Shown piece after piece: positions 5,180 through 20,069 of a stretch of DNA of 28,423 nucleotides (its first letter is position 1; each line of letters opens with the position of its first letter). The position numbers and the translations under genes were made by a program. This DNA comes from Thermoproteota archaeon. Lineage in GTDB: Archaea; Korarchaeota; Korarchaeia; Korarchaeales; Korarchaeaceae. The notes under the pieces were generated by a model, which worked only from the letters and a program-made list of their open reading frames with translations, had not been told where the DNA came from and made no database searches. The stretch covers positions 1 through 28,423 of the forward strand of contig JAVCBY010000010.1 of assembly GCA_037917625.1 (NCBI GenBank), in the 5' to 3' direction.

Positions 5180-5536
5180 TTGAAGTACAAGCAGGTGATA
5201 GTGGTGAGGAAGGACTTAGGGATGAGCTGCGGGAAGATAGCTGTTCAAGTAGCTCACGCCTCACTTGAAGCTGCTGAGATATCTAGAAGGGAAAATCCGG
5301 ATCTATATAAAGCTTGGAAGGGGGAAGGAGCTAAGAAAGTCGTACTTGAGGTTAGGAGTGAGGAGGAGCTCATTGAGATCTACAGAGAAGCTTCAGATGA
5401 GGGGCTAGTATCAGTCTTGATAAGGGACGCAGGGTTGACTGAGATCGAGCCTGGGACGGCGACAGCTGTTGGGATAGGACCTCATGAGGAGGAAAAGATA
5501 GATAAAATTACTGGGAAACTCCCATTGTTGAGGTAA
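5180..5536 (+). CDS. pth2: Peptidyl-tRNA hydrolase Pth2
   Basis: KQVIVVRKDLGMSCGKIAVQVAHA, KKVVL, DAGLTEIEPGTATAVGIGP; TTG at 5180 follows a GGAGG RBS. Confidence 0.96.
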   Translation: MKYKQVIVVRKDLGMSCGKIAVQVAHASLEAAEISRRENPDLYKAWKGEGAKKVVLEVRSEEELIEIYREASDEGLVSVLIRDAGLTEIEPGTATAVGIGPHEEEKIDKITGKLPLLR

Positions 5537-5646: not shown

Positions 5647-5817
5647 ATGGTCGAGTGCGCTATCGAGGGATGTCAGGAGGAGGCGAAGAAGGAGGTGGAC
5701 AGGTCTTACTTACCCGTCATACAGAGCCTGAAGCTGAAGCTCAAGGCTGGTGATTGGAAGAAGATTCCCCTATGTAAGAAGCATTATAAGATCGTTAAGG
5801 AAGCTAAGGAGCTCTAA
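5647..5817 (+). CDS. 56-aa Zn-finger-like small protein (not in the ORF track)
   Basis: MVECAIEGCQEEAKKEVDRSYLPVIQSLKLKLKAGDWKKIPLCKKHYKIVKEAKEL*: CxxxxC...CxxH ligands, host-like codons, TTTAAATA upstream at ~5618. Confidence 0.82.
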   Translation: MVECAIEGCQEEAKKEVDRSYLPVIQSLKLKLKAGDWKKIPLCKKHYKIVKEAKEL

Positions 5818-6047
5818 TGAACTCTCGATTATCATAAGCTCCCCCGAATTCCCATCATGAGAGTTGGAGCATAAGCACTGAGCTCAGAATTTTGAGGGGC
5901 TTCATGGAGCAAGGACATTCTTTGCAGGGAAGTTCAGGAGAATTGATCCGACATTTCAGCAGCATAGCCCTAATTTGGGCTTTCATAGAGGCGAGAAGCA
6001 TTATCAAAGCTTGACCTCTACTCCCTTCTCAATTCCCCTTGATTTAT

Positions 6048-6306
6048 CAAAGTTTTCGCCAGAAAACTCACACCATTCGGGTGGGATGGATGCGAAAATT
6101 TAAAAACTAAAGAGCCCAATTAGTTTGAGGATGTTCCAATGACCTATGAAGCATCTGCTGAGGTGGATAAAAGAGAATAGCCCATGGGGTAACGAGCTCT
6201 ATGGGATGGAGGAGATGTGAGCCCCTCGAACCAGCAGATGAGGAGGTAGGCGCAAAGCCTACTCTAAACGCTGGAAGCCCATACCCTTCAGGGGTGGGTA
6301 GCTCAC
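6048..6306 (+). mobile_element. Non-autonomous IS200/IS605-family derivative (PATE/MITE-like) with no intact tnpA or tnpB
   Basis: TTTAT target motif at 6043-6047. Left subterminal hairpin CTCAC-A-CC-ATTC-GG-GTGGG (6067-6085) and right hairpin CCCAT-A-CCC-TTCA-GGG-GTGGG (6278-6298) share one architecture. The element ends in TCAC, with no TSD. Confidence 0.8.
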
Positions 6307-6869
6307 CTACTTATCCTCACTATCATCAGTTCATGGAAAGCTAGCTTCCTCCTCAAGCATACCTCAGCTTTGAACCCCATTTTCTCAGCTTTTCTCAAAG
6401 TCAGCTCCGGGAGATTGAAGTCAGCATGCAGTATTAGGGCCTTCCCTCTCATCAACCTGGGTAGATCATCGATGAGAGCATCTATGAGCTCTCTCCCCCT
6501 CCTCCCCCCAGCCCATCTCGAGTCCCCCCTTCCCGGCAAGTAAGGTGGGTTGAAAGCTATCAAGTCGAATGAAAGATCTCTGAAGTGCCTCGTCATGTTC
6601 CCTTGGACTACATGCACTTCGAGACCATTCAGCTCAGCGTTCCTAGAGGCTATTAAGCATGACCTAAGGGATATATCGCTAGCCACTGTGCAGCATCCCC
6701 TCTTAGCCATCTCTATCGCGACTATCCCGCTCCCAGTCCCGAGGTCGAGGCATACCTTACTCGATAGATCCTGATCTAAAGCATCTAGCATCAGTAAGCT
6801 GTCCTCAGCCGGCCAGTAGACTTGATCGTCCTTAAGGAGCTTCAATCCCCTAACTTGCCAGATAGCCAA
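6303..6869 (-). CDS. HemK2/PrmC-like release factor glutamine methyltransferase
   Basis: VYWPAEDSLL, LDLGTGSG, FNPPY, WAGGRRGR. Confidence 0.92.
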   Translation of the reverse strand: MAIWQVRGLKLLKDDQVYWPAEDSLLMLDALDQDLSSKVCLDLGTGSGIVAIEMAKRGCCTVASDISLRSCLIASRNAELNGLEVHVVQGNMTRHFRDLSFDLIAFNPPYLPGRGDSRWAGGRRGRELIDALIDDLPRLMRGKALILHADFNLPELTLRKAEKMGFKAEVCLRRKLAFHELMIVRISR

Positions 6870-7613: not shown

Positions 7614-9071
7614 ATGAGCTGGGTCGAAATGGTCGAGCTGAGGAAGATAGATGAGGTTAGATGGGAACTTCCTAAGGGATATAAGCCCGGAATGAGGGTT
7701 CCAGGCCTTGTATTCGCTACTGAGAAGCTCGTTAAGGGAATAGAAGCGAGAGCATTGGATCAACTGGCTAACGTAGCGATGCTCCCGGGCATATATAAGT
7801 ACTCCATAGCCATGCCAGATATACACGAGGGTTACGGCTTCCCGATAGGGGGAGTTGCTGCTTTCGATGCTTACGAGGGTATAGTCAGCCCTGGAGGCGT
7901 GGGTTACGACATAAACTGCGGGGTCAGGTTGATAAGGACGGACTTGAGCGAGAAGGAAGTGAGACCAAAGCTAAAACAACTAGTTGATGCGTTATTCGAG
8001 AACGTCCCCTCAGGGCTGGGGAGCAGTGGGAAGGTTAGGCTGAGCCCTGGGCAGCTCGACGATGTCATAGTTATGGGAGCTAGGTGGGCTGTGGAGCAGG
8101 GCTATGGATGGGAGAGGGATCTAGAGCATTGCGAGGAAGGGGGGATGATGGAGGGAGCGGACCCAGGGGTAATAAGCAGGAAGGCTAAGGAGAGGGGATT
8201 GCCTCAATTAGGCTCTTTGGGGAGCGGAAATCACTTCCTGGAGGTCCAAGTAGTGGATAAGATATACGATGAAGGTGCTGCGAGAGTCATGGGGATAGAG
8301 CGTGAGGGCCAAGTCGTAGCTATGGTGCACACTGGGAGCAGGGGGTTCGGCCACCAAGTAGCGGACGATTTCCTCAACATAATGATGTCAAAGATAAGCT
8401 CGCTTAACTTCAAACTCCCGGATAAGGAGCTGATATTCGCTTATGCTAACTCGGATATAGCTGAGAAGTACTTCAAAGCTATGAAAGGAGCGGCTAATTA
8501 TGCGTGGGCTAATAGGCAGATGATAACGCATTGGGTGAGGGAGTCTTTCGAGAGGGTGTTCGGAAGGAACGCTGAGGACTTAGGGATGAACCTAGTTTAT
8601 GATGTGGCTCACAACATAGCGAAGTTGGAGGAGCATGTGGTCGATGGGAAGAGGGTCAAAGTATATGTGCATAGGAAGGGAGCTACGAGATCCTTCCCTC
8701 CCGGGCATCCAGCTATACCTGAGGACTACAGGGAGGTGGGTCAACCCGTGATAATACCTGGATCCCAGGGTACTGCATCTTACTTGATGGCCGGGACGGA
8801 GAGGGCGATGAGTGAGTCCTTCGGTACCACTGCTCATGGAGCTGGGAGGGTGATGAGCAGGGAGCAAGCTAAGAGAGTCTATAGAGGGAGCCAGATAGTG
8901 CAGATGCTAGCTGAGAGGGGCATAATAGTGAAACCCGCCTCACTAGCTGTAGCAGCTGAGGAAGCGCCTGGAGCTTATAAGGACGTCGATGAAGTCGTTA
9001 ACGCAACCCATAAAGCTGGAATAGCTAGATTAGTTGCGAGACTCGTCCCCATAGGAGTAGTTAAAGGGTGA
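7614..9071 (+). CDS. rtcB: tRNA-splicing ligase RtcB
   Basis: [60 protein letters not shown]. Confidence 0.98.
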
Positions 9072-13775: not shown

Positions 13776-14480
13776 TTGAGGGCGCACGCTTCCGTACTTG
13801 ATATGAATATCCGGAATTATACTTTACAGTCAAAGCAGCAATCAAACTTCTCCTTTAGCGGGTCGGCAAGTGCAACTTATGCTTACAGACCACTTCAACC
13901 ACCTCCACAAACAACCACATCCATTTGCTCATGTAGCGATTGCAAATACTACTCTTCCGAATTGTAATAGCCTGTGAAGAATGAAAAGTGTGTGCGCGAG
14001 TTACTTTCCAGTCTTCAGGTTGCTCAGCAAACACAAATTATTACGCTTGTAAGTATAGAAGTTACTCTCAAACACGACCTAAGGTCTACATCCTAACACC
14101 TTATACAGCGCTTAGTAGAGGATTAAAGGTTTCGGTAGAGTTTGCTTGTGAAGAATGGAAAATACTGTTAAAAATTTGATTTTAGAGTTAAGTATTGATG
14201 GAAGGAAGTGGGGCAAGTGCTTTTTAAATAAAAAGGGTTTAATCAACGACTTTGAGTGGAATGCTTCTAATAATAAAATGTCAGGAATGTGTGGATGAAA
14301 AAACAAGTGGAACTATAATTCAACGATGTGTAAGCATAAAGATTACAACTTATGGGCAAATCTAAGTTTAGCGAAAGATGTGTGGATGTGACATTCGCAT
14401 GTAAACTACCAACACTTTCTCCCGGAGCTCACACATTAAATGTAATAGCGAAAGTCCATGGAAGTGAATTGTTGTTCTGC
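13776..14480 (+). pseudogene. Decayed 3' part of a Cys/Thr-rich surface protein
   Basis: Broken frames give NYT..FTVKAA..SGSASATY (end of an Ig-like NEW3-type domain), TTSTTST/TTTSICSCSDC, further Cys-rich pieces and TLSPGAHTLNV, with many stops and frameshifts. Confidence 0.55.
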
Positions 14481-14519
14481 TTGTTGCTATCAATATTCTT
14501 ATCAATAAGCATAGACACC

Positions 14520-14676
14520 AAAATTGAAAAAATAAGAGAAGATAGCCTGATAAATGCAAGATTATTTCGCTTGATATTGGAGGAAAGATTGTTTCTATTA
14601 GGACAGCGAGGAAAATTCCAAGGAAAATATTTTGATAAATTGTTGCTGTTAAAAAGCTTATTATTTCTTGTAACAT
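14520..14676 (-). pseudogene. N-terminal fragment of a DedA family membrane protein
   Basis: LGIFLAVLIETIFPPISSEIILHLSGYL matches the DedA ExxFPPIPSE motif; similarity is lost after about 50 aa. Confidence 0.7.
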
Positions 14677-14785
14677 TCTATTGATTTTGATGTTTAGGAT
14701 TAAAAAGGATGAAAATTTAAAATAAATAGCAAGAAATCAAGGCCGTTTAAAAGTTTGCAAGGGCTGTTTTAAGATCTATCAAAAA

Positions 14786-14870
14786 TAGCCCCGGGCGGGT
14801 TCGAACCGCCGTCTCAGGCTCCAGAGGCTTGCGCTAAATTCTGCGTCCTTGACCGCTAGACGACGGGGCT
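14786..14870 (-). tRNA. tRNA-Gln(CTG) with a 12-nt intron at position 29/30
   Basis: Reverse complement: AGCCCCG TC GTCT AGCGGTCAA GGAC G CAG[AATTTAGCGCAA]GC CTCTGGA GCCTG AGAC GGCGG TTCGAAC CCGCC CGGGGCT A; A1-U72 pair; TATA (TTTATAA) at 14895-14889. Confidence 0.9.
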
Positions 14871-15229
14871 TTAATTTAAAATTTTTTCTTATAAACTTTT
14901 AACAATAAAATAGTTCATATACTATTTTGTAACTTTTTTCCTTGGACTGAAGGATTTATAATAAGAGATTCGCATTTTCGGAGTACGTACTATTTAAATA
15001 TGAGATAAAGACTGCTTTATTTTCAAGATAACTAAGTTGGAAGTAATAGATATTTGCAATAGAGCGATGTGGTAAGATTAATGAAAAATTTGCTATTTTA
15101 GGGTTGGTTGTTTGTAGTTTTAAAAATTACAAATCGAACCAGAGGTTTTATACAGATGGGGAGTTTCTGAAACTTAGTAGAGAATTAGAATGTTTAAAAG
15201 TATTTATATAAACAAATTTAATAATACCT

Positions 15230-15691
15230 ATGAAAAATAGGAGAAAAATCCTACTTTTAATTCTTGCTGTTGTATTATTATCTACTTTTCTCTCAATTTT
15301 CTTAATAAAGAAAGTTAAATTTAACGGAGATAAGGTATTATCAGAAATAGCAAAGCTTAATCCTGATGAAGCAACAATTCGAATTTTAAAATACGCTGAG
15401 TGTAAAACTTTGGAGAAAAAAGAGAATGTATGGATTGTTAAAGATTGTAAGGGTGACTATTACTTTAAGCTTTTTCTCGCAGAAGATGGATATATGCTTG
15501 GAAAATGTACGGAATGGAAAACTCCAAGGGAAGCTTTTATAAAGCTTAGAGACTTTTTGCCTATAAAAGGATGCGCTGATGTAAATGCTGAAGATAGACT
15601 TCTTCGCGAATCAAATTTTGCAAGAGTATATGAGATTTGTGGTTTAAAAATAGCTTTTGTTGAAGAATGTATAGTTGGGGTGAGGTCATGA
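15230..15691 (+). CDS. Membrane-anchored hypothetical protein
   Basis: Basic N-terminus plus TM helix and several Cys; TTTATATA upstream; 4-nt overlap with the next gene. Confidence 0.8.
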   Translation: MKNRRKILLLILAVVLLSTFLSIFLIKKVKFNGDKVLSEIAKLNPDEATIRILKYAECKTLEKKENVWIVKDCKGDYYFKLFLAEDGYMLGKCTEWKTPREAFIKLRDFLPIKGCADVNAEDRLLRESNFARVYEICGLKIAFVEECIVGVRS

Positions 15692-16605
15692 ATAGAATTA
15701 TCCTATCTGCAATTTTCTTTTCTTTGATCTTTTTTAGTTTAATTCATTTTGTTATGGCCGCATGTTGTACCGATACTGGTAACTGTGCTCATGCTTTTTG
15801 TACAGATGGAAGGAGTTGCCCAAAAGGTTGGAAGTCTTGCACTTGTGCTACATACTGTTGTCCTGGTTGTAACTGTTGTCCGACCACATCCACCATAAGA
15901 ACAACAACCACCACCATTTCTTGCCCATCCGGCACTGACTGTATGACTGCTACTGAATGCTTTGGTGCCGGAGGTTCTTGTATCTCCAGTGATTGTGGTT
16001 ATGGGTGTTGTTGTAGTTTCTCTAAAACCACCACATCCACCACTCAACCCACCACATCCACCACCGTATGCCATAATAAGAGTAATCCATGGACTAGAGC
16101 AACAGCTTGTTGTGGTAGTGCAACAGATTGCGTGGATCGTAACGGAAATTGTGTAAGTAGCGGTAATTGGGCAAAGGCCGATAATATCAATAATGTGTTG
16201 GATTATTGTGATGGAGGGAGCTGGATAACTGGTTGGTGCGTAGGAGCTAGTAGAAAATGCTTAAGTGGGTGCATATACACTACCAACACTCGTGGATGCA
16301 ATAAGTATAGTGCCGAGTGTCCTCCTTATGACTATAAAGTTGTTCTTGCTAAATGTCCAACAACCGCTACTCTTCTAGAATGTACTAAGGATGAAGACTG
16401 TCCCAATGGACAATGTTGCAATACATTTTCTACCCCACCCCAATGTAAGGAAAAAGGTACCATAATTTCTTACGAAGGAAAATCTTATCTGTGCGACCCT
16501 CCGGAGGGATTTGTCGAAGTTAAAGACGAAGTTAAAAACCCAACAAAAAGCTTAAGCTTCTTTGATATGATAATAAGCTTTTTCTCTCACTTCTTCAAAA
16601 AATAA
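15688..16605 (+). CDS. Secreted Cys-rich modular protein with Thr-rich linkers
   Basis: Signal peptide; 38 Cys in 305 aa; TTST linkers; amphipathic C-terminus FFDMIISFFSHFFKK; GGGGTGAGG RBS. Confidence 0.85.
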   Translation: MNRIILSAIFFSLIFFSLIHFVMAACCTDTGNCAHAFCTDGRSCPKGWKSCTCATYCCPGCNCCPTTSTIRTTTTTISCPSGTDCMTATECFGAGGSCISSDCGYGCCCSFSKTTTSTTQPTTSTTVCHNKSNPWTRATACCGSATDCVDRNGNCVSSGNWAKADNINNVLDYCDGGSWITGWCVGASRKCLSGCIYTTNTRGCNKYSAECPPYDYKVVLAKCPTTATLLECTKDEDCPNGQCCNTFSTPPQCKEKGTIISYEGKSYLCDPPEGFVEVKDEVKNPTKSLSFFDMIISFFSHFFKK

Positions 16606-18617
16606 AATTCAAAATTCGGTCTCAAAAACCAATCTACATCTATTGTTCCATCTTCCTTTTTATAAACATAAGAACCGCCAATAAATCCGAAGATTTCTCT
16701 TACCCTATCTTTTAATAAACCATCTTTACAAAGATACAATCCAAACCCGTTGGCAGGCCCTATTATTATTTTATCTCCGGATTCGCTATTAAGTTTCTCA
16801 GCGACATGATCAGGTAAAGATATTACCCATTCATAGACCGATACACCACGAGGAATTGGGCTTATATAAACGAAGTAAGTTGGAAAACCAAAAGCTCTTA
16901 ATGTTTGAGGTATTGTATAGTTAATTGTATATATTTCCCTCACAGGAGGATTCCATCTCTCATATCCCATCACAAACTTCATAAGATGCCAGTAATCCCA
17001 ATTTTTTGTGACGAATTGATCTACTCCATTCAAATCTTTTATTTTATTCCACAAATTATCAGGATTCTCTGTCATAATTTTCCGAAGTTCATAAGGTTTA
17101 AGATCAACATATTGTAGGTGAGTATTTTCAAGCCTCTCGGCGCCTCCTCTGTCTAAAACCCACTGGTAATAATACAACCAGGCCGGAACATCACCCAATA
17201 ACTCGGTTCTCACCTTTCCATCAGGATACAAGCTACTTATTATATTATACTCTTCTTCAGCCTGAATTAGAGCTCTCTTTGCTCCTTCTAATCCTGCAAC
17301 TACTTTCTTTTGTTTTATGTCAAAAGTTGCATTATCTAAGAACCAGAAGAAAAACAACGCTTGCCTTCTATTGTTGGCATCTTGATATAGTAAATCCAAT
17401 TTATCGGAATCGTACCAAGGAAAATCTCTATTGTAAAGCTTATCTCCTCCGCCAAGTTGAGGAGCTTTATTTGAATATAAATTCCATTGAAGCATTATCA
17501 AATCCCAAACATCATTATCTGTTGGTTTAAGAGTTCTTCCATTAATAAACAGCTCAGCATATTTTATTCCATATAGAGCATCAAAAATTGAATAGTCATT
17601 TGCAATTATTTTTCCGTTTAAACCTTCAAACATCTCTGGATGTTTTAAAATATCAAAACCAGAATCCTCTATCAATTTCAAATGCTTTGCTAGCATCCAT
17701 GTCTCTCTTCCAACATCAGGAAATAAAGAATAATGCCTCCTATATACCGAATGAAAGATTATTGGAGAAAAATCAACTAGCTTATTACCATATCCATCAA
17801 TTTGAGTAGCTCTAGTTAACAAAGAGATTTCATCAAAATTTTCTGGTAATTTCCTATCAGTAACACCAATTCCATAATAGGCTATGGCATTTATTGTGGC
17901 ATTTTTAGCCAATTCCTTATCAAAACCAAGTCTTAATCCTAAATCAGAGGAATAATCAATAGTTTTCATAGGATCTAATATTTTAAAACTTTGTATGTTC
18001 TCATAGAGTGATTTTATTTTATAAACCTCGTCATACAACCCTTCAACTAAATGAGAAAAATTCCTCGAATATGCTAGCTCTTCGTCAGTTATTTTGCTAT
18101 CAGAAGCCTTATCTCTCAAATAATTAATAAATATTGGTATATCAAGAATTTCTTTGTTGTTTGCCATCAATTCAACAAATTCCCTTTCATTTCTATCTTG
18201 AATTCCATCTTTATCTAATGGCTTAATAATATCAATATATTTTTCCAACCCTGAATCCAAAGCTTGCTTAAAATTAAGATTTGGTTTTAAAGGATCTGTA
18301 TTATAAACAAAAATTTCCTCAGGATCCGACAATCCATCATTGTCGGTATCTTTCTTGTTAGGATCTGTATGATATTTCTCTATTTCATCGACGTCTTTAA
18401 TTCCATCACCATCGCTATCTCTATTTCTTCTCCAGTTTTCATAAGCAAAATAAGCACCTATCAAACTAGCGGTTCCAATACCGCCTATAATGATAGCTCT
18501 ACCTAGAGCATTCTTTCCGACAGAATCCTTAGCATGTACTAAAGTGCTGCTCTCCTCATAAAATTGTCTTACATCATCTTGATAAAGTCCCTCCTTCAGT
18601 TTCTTGAGGACATTCAC
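16587..18617 (-). CDS. 676-aa membrane-anchored protein with Ca-binding DxDxDG (TSP3-like) repeats and an unknown C-terminal domain
   Basis: TM segment AIIIGGIGTASLIGAYFAY, then DSDGDGIKDVDE...TDPNKKDTDNDGLSDPEE...TDPL. Confidence 0.8.
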   Translation of the reverse strand: MNVLKKLKEGLYQDDVRQFYEESSTLVHAKDSVGKNALGRAIIIGGIGTASLIGAYFAYENWRRNRDSDGDGIKDVDEIEKYHTDPNKKDTDNDGLSDPEEIFVYNTDPLKPNLNFKQALDSGLEKYIDIIKPLDKDGIQDRNEREFVELMANNKEILDIPIFINYLRDKASDSKITDEELAYSRNFSHLVEGLYDEVYKIKSLYENIQSFKILDPMKTIDYSSDLGLRLGFDKELAKNATINAIAYYGIGVTDRKLPENFDEISLLTRATQIDGYGNKLVDFSPIIFHSVYRRHYSLFPDVGRETWMLAKHLKLIEDSGFDILKHPEMFEGLNGKIIANDYSIFDALYGIKYAELFINGRTLKPTDNDVWDLIMLQWNLYSNKAPQLGGGDKLYNRDFPWYDSDKLDLLYQDANNRRQALFFFWFLDNATFDIKQKKVVAGLEGAKRALIQAEEEYNIISSLYPDGKVRTELLGDVPAWLYYYQWVLDRGGAERLENTHLQYVDLKPYELRKIMTENPDNLWNKIKDLNGVDQFVTKNWDYWHLMKFVMGYERWNPPVREIYTINYTIPQTLRAFGFPTYFVYISPIPRGVSVYEWVISLPDHVAEKLNSESGDKIIIGPANGFGLYLCKDGLLKDRVREIFGFIGGSYVYKKEDGTIDVDWFLRPNFEFYFLKK

Positions 18618-18630
18618 AAGCGATTTAGGT

Positions 18631-18654
18631 GCGAAAAATATTTAAAATTTTCGC
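18631..18654. promoter_or_regulatory. Bidirectional BRE-TATA-BRE promoter / inverted repeat
   Basis: GCGAAAA-ATATTTAAAA-TTTTCGC, centred between the divergent starts at 18617 (-) and 18669 (+). Confidence 0.65.
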
Positions 18655-18668
18655 TTATAGTTAATAGT

Positions 18669-20069
18669 ATGAGAGTAGATGAAAAACTTTTACATTATTC
18701 AAGTAAAGATGGAGTTGAATATAAAAAGACTCTAGAGGAAGTCACAGCTTTTATTTCTTATAAATCCCTAGAGGATGAAGAAAGAAAAGAATATGCTAAG
18801 TATCTCGATGAATTGGGGCCAGCCCTATTCCATCTTTCACCCTCTGAAGTCTCAATGATTGAACTATCCCTGCCCCCTTACAGTGAAATAGAGATGGAAG
18901 TTTATAAAAGGATAGGAATAAGCGAAGATGAGATAAAAAAGTTAAAAAGATATAGGGAAAGAACGAGAAAATATGTGTTCAGAGTTCCTGGCATAAATGT
19001 GCTGGCAATCTATTTACTAAAATTTCTCTCAATTTTCGATAAGGAGCTTAAAGAGGAAATTAATGTTAAAAGGCAGATTAACGAGAGGCTTTTTACGAAA
19101 GAATATAAAGATATCCTGGAGGAAAGATCAAAAGAAATTCTCAGATCTTCGAGATTAGCAACCATACCAATCTATGTCTCTTCTGGAGTTCTTCATTACC
19201 TAAGGAGCTCGGACATCACAGTAGAAATAGCCTATCTTTCCTCCATATTAATATTAAATATTTTAACTTATTTACCCTATATTTCAGAAAATTTTAAAAG
19301 CAAAAAATACAGAAAGATAGTTCCTTACATTCAAATGTTAACGCTCTCCTCGTTTGGAGCTTATATTTACTACAAAAGCTTCGACCCGATGCTGATGGGA
19401 GCCTATTTACTAACGGTGACACTGCCTTATTGGATCCTCAGGCTTTTCGAGATTGGTTTAAGTCGAACTATCTCTAATTTTATAGAAAAAGGATGGCCTT
19501 ACTTTCCAAAAATAATCAGAAAAGCTATAGATAAGTTGAGAAGATTTTTAGCAAACATAAAAGTAAACCCCTTTAATGAAAAAGAAATTTATGAAGAACT
19601 TTACAACGCATCAGTGAGGCTGGAGGGGGTCTCTTCCTTACCATCCTCTGTCTTTGAAGAATTTAGGGAAAAATTAAGCAAAAAGATTATAAAATTAGAA
19701 AATCCGGAAGAAAAGCTCGCCTTGCCTTATGTTTTAGGCTACTACAGAAAGGAAATTGTTCTAATAGAAGATGATAGAAAAATGAAAATTGTGAATAGAA
19801 GAGCCCTGGAGGAATTGGCGAAATCATACGGAATGTCCACGGAAGATTTCGAAAGAGAAGTCTCGAAATTTCCCTGGAAATATTTAGAGGCTGATCTAGT
19901 TGACGGAAAATTAGTTTATGGAAGAAGCGTTATAGGCATGTATAACTTTAAGAATGAGGCAATAAGAAAAGGAGTTGCCGCAAAAGAGGTGGAGGCTTGT
20001 TTGATAAATCTCTACGCTAAAGATCTCATAATGACTAAATATCTTCAAATCACTGAGGGTAATTCTTAA
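18669..20069 (+). CDS. Hypothetical polytopic membrane protein (466 aa)
   Basis: Long ORF with a central cluster of 3-4 hydrophobic helices; ATG 18669 preferred over TTG 18564 because the latter overlaps the divergent gene. Confidence 0.8.
   Translation: MRVDEKLLHYSSKDGVEYKKTLEEVTAFISYKSLEDEERKEYAKYLDELGPALFHLSPSEVSMIELSLPPYSEIEMEVYKRIGISEDEIKKLKRYRERTRKYVFRVPGINVLAIYLLKFLSIFDKELKEEINVKRQINERLFTKEYKDILEERSKEILRSSRLATIPIYVSSGVLHYLRSSDITVEIAYLSSILILNILTYLPYISENFKSKKYRKIVPYIQMLTLSSFGAYIYYKSFDPMLMGAYLLTVTLPYWILRLFEIGLSRTISNFIEKGWPYFPKIIRKAIDKLRRFLANIKVNPFNEKEIYEELYNASVRLEGVSSLPSSVFEEFREKLSKKIIKLENPEEKLALPYVLGYYRKEIVLIEDDRKMKIVNRRALEELAKSYGMSTEDFEREVSKFPWKYLEADLVDGKLVYGRSVIGMYNFKNEAIRKGVAAKEVEACLINLYAKDLIMTKYLQITEGNS

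Follow-up and report, generated by a model that had tools for sequence, protein, structure and literature searches.

A probable gene-less IS200/IS605 derivative on the stop codon of hemK2 in Korarchaeum

The contig analyzed here, a complete NCBI contig from a Korarchaeum MAG, raises the question of what separates two convergent genes whose ends meet in related archaea, and whether the separation changed either product. In the window, by which we mean the whole stretch of 28,423 nt analyzed, 485 bp lie between the stop codons of hemK2 and of a gene encoding a protein of 56 amino acids, whereas hemK and the same small gene overlap convergently by 10–29 bp, both stops included, in all nine Korarchaeia loci among those listed (for example, at 5402–5411 in locus L001). 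The loci of the relatives were obtained by a genome scan with a broad HemK alignment, the best locus among those listed being 60% identical, and the small gene was located beside hemK in each of the nine by tblastn. No Pfam or NCBIfam family matched the 56-amino-acid protein.

The larger of the two genes follows ksgA and is convergent with the small gene. Its product scored 126.7 bits against TIGR00537 (cut-off 87) in an NCBIfam profile search and contains the Pfam MTS domain together with an NPPY motif, the longer string FNPPYLP being invariant in the alignment. Based on a family model above its cut-off and the NPPY motif, we identify the ORF from its sequence as HemK2/MTQ2. The protein of Korarchaeum cryptofilum OPF8 falls in the same 90% cluster as the HemK2 of the window. 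The last codons of hemK2 in the window are ATA AGT AGG TGA. The features discussed below are collected in Table 1.

Table 1. Features of the hemK2 3′ region, in window coordinates
Feature	Position	Strand	Basis
Conserved 56-aa gene, convergent with hemK2	5647..5817	plus	ORF, tblastn; no family
Lineage-specific spacer; target motif in its last bases	5818..6047		comparison with relatives
Putative left cleavage/target tetranucleotide TTAT, within TTTAT (6043–6047); in the flank, outside the element	6044..6047	plus	19 nt 5′ of left hairpin foot
Probable gene-less IS200/IS605 derivative (palindrome-associated transposable element, PATE), 259 nt	6048..6306	plus (top strand)	tnpB homology, hairpins, guide/cleavage code
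Putative left guide tetranucleotide AAAA	6063..6066	plus	four bases 5′ of left hairpin foot
Left subterminal imperfect palindrome: 7 pairs, bulged A6072, 4-nt loop	6067..6085	plus	shared hairpin motif
Possible archaeal BRE/TATA-like sequence, a candidate promoter for rightward transcription	6092..6107	plus	read from sequence, inference only
RNA-like structured region where a TnpB guide-RNA (omega RNA) scaffold would be expected	6171..6306	plus	RNA fold
tnpB 3′ end remnant (tail after the RuvC-III/zinc-ribbon region)	6177..6305	plus	protein matches, tblastn
Putative right guide tetranucleotide GAAG	6274..6277	plus	four bases 5′ of right hairpin foot
Right subterminal imperfect palindrome: 8 pairs, bulged A6283, 4-nt loop	6278..6298	plus	shared hairpin motif
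Putative right cleavage tetranucleotide TCAC, last bases of the element	6303..6306	plus	pairing with GAAG, P0143 divergence
hemK2/MTQ2 family methyltransferase gene, 188 aa	6303..6869	minus	ORF call, family models
Right flank, antisense to hemK2 3′ end; candidate guide segment of any omega RNA transcribed out of the element	6307..6326	plus	inferred from TnpB mechanism

The part of the intergenic region nearest to hemK2 has homologs at the protein level. The plus-strand frame at 6171–6341 (57 residues), searched against 1.84 billion representative proteins, matched 28 of them at E ≤ 0.001, the best at E = 9.4e-22. Two of the matches (P0156 and P0167) were dropped as unrelated repetitive proteins, and the remaining 26 relatives are short ORFs or fragments, many of which carry the TnpB zinc ribbon and the third RuvC motif just ahead of the stretch matching the window; fragments among them bear the motif ..CPNCG..DRDLNACINIAH... 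A Pfam scan of eight relatives identified the Cas12f1-like_TNB domain at E ≤ 0.01 in seven, reaching the gathering score in five, and in these seven the domain ends where the window match starts; the eighth, P0143, has no Pfam domain. The NCBIfam guided_TnpB model, which has a cut-off of 100 bits, was tried on two relatives: P0149 scored 35.9 bits, and P0159 scored 98 bits, just below the cut-off, with model positions 253–389 of 389 aligned up to residue 139 and the window match beginning at residue 136. By tblastn, all TnpB-tail relatives map from window position 6177 onward. Because its frame matches the C-terminal tails of TnpB, we infer that the stretch from there to 6305 is a leftover of the 3′ end of tnpB.

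The contig has no tnpA or full tnpB within its 28 kb, and none of the 33 ORFs scanned encodes a transposase. A second copy of 6048–6306 was found neither in the window nor in the 80 archaeal loci listed, where blastn with the element and with 5818–6320 gave chance matches only and tblastn with the TnpB-tail relatives gave none. The phage and plasmid collections searched contained nothing matching, a protein search with the minus-strand frame at 6110–6310 found nothing, a near-length protein search for the element frame recovered P0143 alone, and none of the six small ORFs of the spacer and element has an exact entry in the protein collection. Rfam had no match for 6048–6306 at the gathering score or at E ≤ 10, and on the window as a whole at E ≤ 10 it reported just tRNAs elsewhere and two sub-threshold matches.

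Other parts of the contig hold several features of their own. An 85-nt tRNA-like gene on the minus strand (14786–14870), scoring 42 bits in Rfam, has an unreadable four-base anticodon according to ARAGORN and probably holds an intron. Beside the tRNA-Arg gene at 1161–1236 is a plus-strand ORF of 127 amino acids (718–1098) that looks truncated, containing a partial carbamoyl-phosphate-binding domain of aspartate/ornithine carbamoyltransferase (profile positions 43–137 of 148). Several ORFs in the region 14352–20069 lack a Pfam family and one encodes bacterial TSP3 repeats; the region also has two copies, at 14874 and 18640, of a 20-mer rich in A+T.

The ends of the element were sought in its subterminal structures. 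A hairpin motif, CAYACC-N3-7-GGGTGGG, which was derived post hoc from the two hairpins themselves, matches twice when both strands of the window are scanned, both times on the plus strand and near the two ends of the element. It also matches twice in 1.23 Mb of other archaeal loci; these matches (L003 and L005) were rejected as elements, both being one conserved coding motif of an orthologous gene. A local alignment of the first against the last 60 nt was not significant alone, an equal or higher score occurring in 43 of 2000 shuffles and in 75 of 748 window pairs. In IS608 of Helicobacter pylori, which serves as mechanistic model, the left cleavage site, TTAC, lies in the flank and is read by a guide AAAG, and the right site, TCAA, belongs to the element and is read by GAAT, each guide being located 5′ of a hairpin foot (PMC3201880, PMC5934647). 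The distance to the hairpin foot is 19 nt for the left site and 10 nt for the right one, and both hairpins have an extrahelical base (PMC3201880, PMC5934647). Read by analogy with this scheme, TTAT pairs with AAAA and TCAC with GAAG in the window, three positions as in IS608 and the fourth covarying at both ends; TTAT precedes the left foot by 19 nt, and the last base of TCAC is 8 nt past the right one. Across 56,846 window positions, IS608-type pairings at these fixed offsets number 11 for the left type and 9 for the right type. Where the right guide lies varies with the choice of hairpin foot: if a G-T pair is counted there, as it is by the RNA folding, the guide moves by one base and gives a poorer fit to the rule.

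The right end is also marked by the relatives. P0143, a protein of 59 amino acids encoded on another NCBI contig (26,228 bp), shares 86% identity with the window frame and agrees with it through ..GSPYPSGVGSS, diverging from the next codon, the first base of which is 6306. The first differing codon encodes His in one and Pro in the other, so the C at 6306 is kept. P0143 is known as a protein only, its codons being deduced, and could belong to a full-length parent; at this level it provides one close second copy, with a right flank that differs from that of the window. Of the 26 relatives, 8 have ORFs too short to span the hairpin and 18 read past it; 15 of these 18 have either SS and then a codon with C as its first base (10) or AH (5), and three have neither. 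With codons deduced from protein, the two endings would represent two frames of one terminal heptamer, beyond which the sequences of all relatives differ.

Since the IS608 guide/cleavage pairings and the left spacing fit, the ends of the element are set at 6048 and 6306 without reference to hemK. The first-pass annotation had drawn the same boundaries, which the guide/cleavage code, the 19-nt spacing and the divergence of P0143 at 6306 now bear out, and had assigned the segment to the IS200/IS605 family, as do the tnpB 3′ remnant, the similar subterminal hairpins and the IS608-type code. It had further noted that the family inserts without a target duplication, and our reading of the ends and flanks agrees: terminal inverted repeats and a target duplication are absent, and the repeat listing has none at the boundaries. 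The identity and boundaries of 6048–6306, deduced from the sequence itself and from protein-level relatives, may be regarded as well supported. More generally, the IS608 rule, where compensatory changes accompany it, can fix the ends of a lone copy.

With the ends in place, the consequence for hemK2 can be read directly. TTTAT at 6043–6047 precedes the element, and the stretch GGGTAGCTCAC terminates at 6306 and is followed by CTACTTATCC. The stop codon TGA of hemK2 is the reverse complement of 6303–6305, confirming the earlier proposal that the terminal TCAC of the element supplies it. When 6048–6306 was removed in silico and both states were translated, the product ended in ..MIVRISR followed by a stop with and without the element, so that both alleles encode Ile-Ser-Arg-stop as had been predicted; in the excised state the stop is supplied by the TTTAT motif. 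Elements of the IS200/IS605 family insert 3′ of a target tetranucleotide and neither gain nor lose bases (PMC3201880). Because insertion of this kind neither adds nor removes bases, the end of hemK2 before insertion would be given by the joined flanks and would be synonymous with the present one, and a silent swap from AGA TAA to AGG TGA follows. The supply of a stop codon to hemK2 is a tidy but ordinary outcome of how IS200/IS605 elements insert. By a textbook mechanism, the swap neatly illustrates that a seamless insertion may leave the end of a gene unharmed.

The element accounts for part of the distance between the two genes. As the nine listed relatives have no spacer, against 485 bp in the window, the 230 bp to the left of the element (5818–6047) are also lineage specific; none of these relatives showed an empty site. 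The initial picture was of a single harmless insertion: the swap did prove silent in silico, but the left 230 bp are absent from all nine listed distant relatives as well, which makes that picture incomplete. This part of the spacer has no tnpB similarity by tblastn and no Rfam match above threshold, its open frames lack a meaningful Pfam match, and its fold z-scores are −0.82 and −0.98. A duplicate of the hemK2 3′ end in the left part of the spacer was considered and rejected, 1403 of 3000 shuffles scoring as well. The C/D-box RNA family sR33 matches the minus strand directly after the 56-amino-acid gene (5816–5862) at 16 bits, below its gathering score of 37 (E = 0.96), most likely by chance. 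The simplest reading is that the spacer derives from an earlier, separate event.

Closer relatives are available as proteins. In the OPF8 lineage, the nearest named one, HemK2 ends in ..ISRA and the 56-amino-acid protein in ..KELQT, while in the window and in a third lineage (MCC6028810.1 and MCC6028809.1) the ends are ..ISR and ..KEL. Judged from these termini, OPF8 either is not the predicted empty allele or would be indistinguishable from one. Known at the protein level, ..ISRA fits several junctions, and OPF8 may lack the element, the spacer or both. At a different gene of these loci, the rtcB match is split in four of the nine listed Korarchaeia (L001, L002, L006 and L007), and in L001 (1245–4043, minus strand) rtcB is interrupted in frame by roughly 1.3 kb at ..DINC / ..HN / CG.., with boundary residues that we take to be typical of an intein. 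The rtcB gene of the window (7614–9071) is uninterrupted.

The right end of the element has the features of a structured RNA. On the plus strand, 6171–6306 folds at −54.7 kcal/mol with a z-score of −3.34, and none of 200 shuffles was as stable; the minus strand of the wider stretch 6030–6320 has a z-score of −0.44. The region overlaps the 3′ end of tnpB, where elements of this family have their guide-RNA scaffold, and stops at the right boundary, and we regard it as a candidate omega RNA scaffold. In the guide mechanism of TnpB, the flank serves as the guide portion (PMC10055086). If transcribed, the scaffold-like RNA would take the hemK2 flank as guide, allowing a TnpB made elsewhere to recut empty sites, an activity described for the IS200/IS605 family, and the retained guide-RNA scaffold would then be antisense to the 3′ end of hemK2.

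How much of the intergenic region arrived with the element bears on whether the swap was silent. An appreciable minority chance attaches to the reading in which the inserted unit was the whole 485-bp spacer (about 5818–6306), or in which two or more events contributed; the change would then not be silent relative to the ancestor, the proteins of hemK2 and its neighbor both having lost C-terminal residues. The uniform overlap without a spacer in the nine listed Korarchaeia loci favors this, as do the longer OPF8 termini compared with those of the window, the ..KELQT tail having the same length as in the outgroup L001. The left hairpin, guide and 19-nt spacing nevertheless put an element end at 6048, and 5818–6047 has no tnpB similarity, family match, significant fold or gene-end repeat, while an earlier separate spacer event fits both sets of facts and is compatible with a silent second step. 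A smaller displacement of the left boundary, to 6044, would make TTGAT (6039–6043) the target and would mean that the insertion shortened hemK2. TTGAT is the target motif of ISDra2 and lies directly upstream of that position, TTATCAAAG occurs twice in the window, at 6001 and at 6044, and the left end is known from a single copy. We consider this boundary very unlikely, given that AAAA pairs with TTAT in the IS608 pattern and more poorly with TGAT, that the spacing would be 23 nt in place of 19 nt, and that excising 6044–6306 produces a 14-codon extension of hemK2 shown by no relative.

The mobility of the segment and the meaning of the swap can each be read otherwise. A resident, nonmobile structured RNA gene downstream of hemK2 would explain the strong plus-strand fold and the single copy in 28 kb, but no Rfam family matches, the segment is absent downstream of hemK in all nine listed relatives, its frame shares homology with TnpB tails encoded on numerous unrelated contigs, and a close copy has another flank; this explanation strikes us as extremely improbable. 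As for the swap, the cleavage sites of both elements have the form T-Y-A (TTAT and TCAC in the window, TTAC and TCAA in IS608), or T-R-A on the other strand. It is conceivable that the exchange is a selected property of the family, with target and right end evolved for the stops of convergent genes: IS608 has the same register, the reverse complements of TTAC and TCAA holding TAA and TGA at the same offset, and the exchange is silent here. Against this, the case observed is a single one, the stop is in frame in just one of three registers, the T-Y-A core is explained by similar guides reading both sites in one active site, and the literature searched yielded no discussion of IS608 sites as stop codons. 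Selection for the swap is in our view improbable.

We put at about 80% the probability of the joint reading, namely, that 6048–6306 is a nonautonomous PATE derived by core deletion from a tnpB-carrying element and inserted by TnpA 3′ of TTAT with a silent exchange of the hemK2 stop. Deletion of the core would have produced an element that retained on the left a linker, the guide AAAA and a bulged hairpin and, on the right, the last ~130 nt of the parent, comprising the tnpB tail, the scaffold-like structure, the guide GAAG, the second bulged hairpin and TCAC at its end. A Y1 transposase (TnpA) supplied from elsewhere would have carried it in single-stranded form and inserted it 3′ of TTAT without duplication. 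On the other strand this target would have been part of the TAA stop of hemK2, and TCAC, which is GTGA on that strand, would have turned AGA into AGG, both Arg, and TAA into TGA at the same position. What makes the swap possible is the T-Y-A core common to both cleavage sites. We regard the swap as a by-product of the mechanism together with the survival of harmless insertions, rather than as a demonstrated adaptation.

The same core has an implication for where such elements may persist. Because it is shared, the target and the right end can both be read as stops, TAA and TGA, at the same offset, and insertion on a convergent TAA would always restore a stop and alter just the third base of the last sense codon. 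It is possible, albeit unlikely, that the stops of convergent genes are preferred surviving sites for IS200/IS605 elements in very compact genomes. A site bias, if confirmed, would inform how the family persists in dense archaeal genomes. Family-wide use of stop codons as safe sites is at present suggested by one case, the copy described here.

Compared with IS608 as described in PMC3201880 and PMC5934647, the window element is alike in having guide-read sites, a 19-nt left spacing, an extrahelical base and insertion 3′ of T-T-A-N. It differs in its tetranucleotides (TTAT/AAAA and TCAC/GAAG in place of TTAC/AAAG and TCAA/GAAT), in having A instead of T as the bulged base, in the distance between the right cut and the foot (8 nt against 10 nt), and in having no genes. 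SisTnpB1 of Sulfolobus islandicus uses a TTTAA flank motif (bioRxiv 10.1101/2023.03.06.531077), which resembles the TTTAT of the window in being a T-rich left-flank motif of five bases. The right end of the SisTnpB1 element encodes a guide RNA that overlaps tnpB at its 3′ end, as would the candidate RNA of the window; unlike the SisTnpB1 element as presented in that source, the window element keeps just the tnpB tail, and its RNA and flank motif are predicted.

The closest likeness is to the PATEs, known from Haloquadratum (HqIRS71; PMC3119063). In the 271-nt PATE-like element of Halanaerobium hydrogeniformans, a left end of 28 nt is joined to the final 58 nt of tnpB and the right end (PMC7290912); the PATE-like elements found in Geobacillus stearothermophilus frequently encode guide RNAs (PMC10055086). 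Like these, the window element is gene-less, without inverted ends or target duplication, has near-terminal palindromes, combines a left-end hairpin with the final portion of tnpB and a right end, and is about 260–270 nt long. In contrast to the PATEs described in these accounts, it occurs in Korarchaeum, as one DNA copy located exactly on a stop codon, and is seen on a 28-kb contig without a parent element or transposase. The literature searched held no report linking Korarchaeum with IS605 or TnpB. Gene-less IS200/IS605 derivatives with end hairpins and a 3′ part of tnpB are already known elsewhere, and the present locus adds a clearly delimited one to Korarchaeum.
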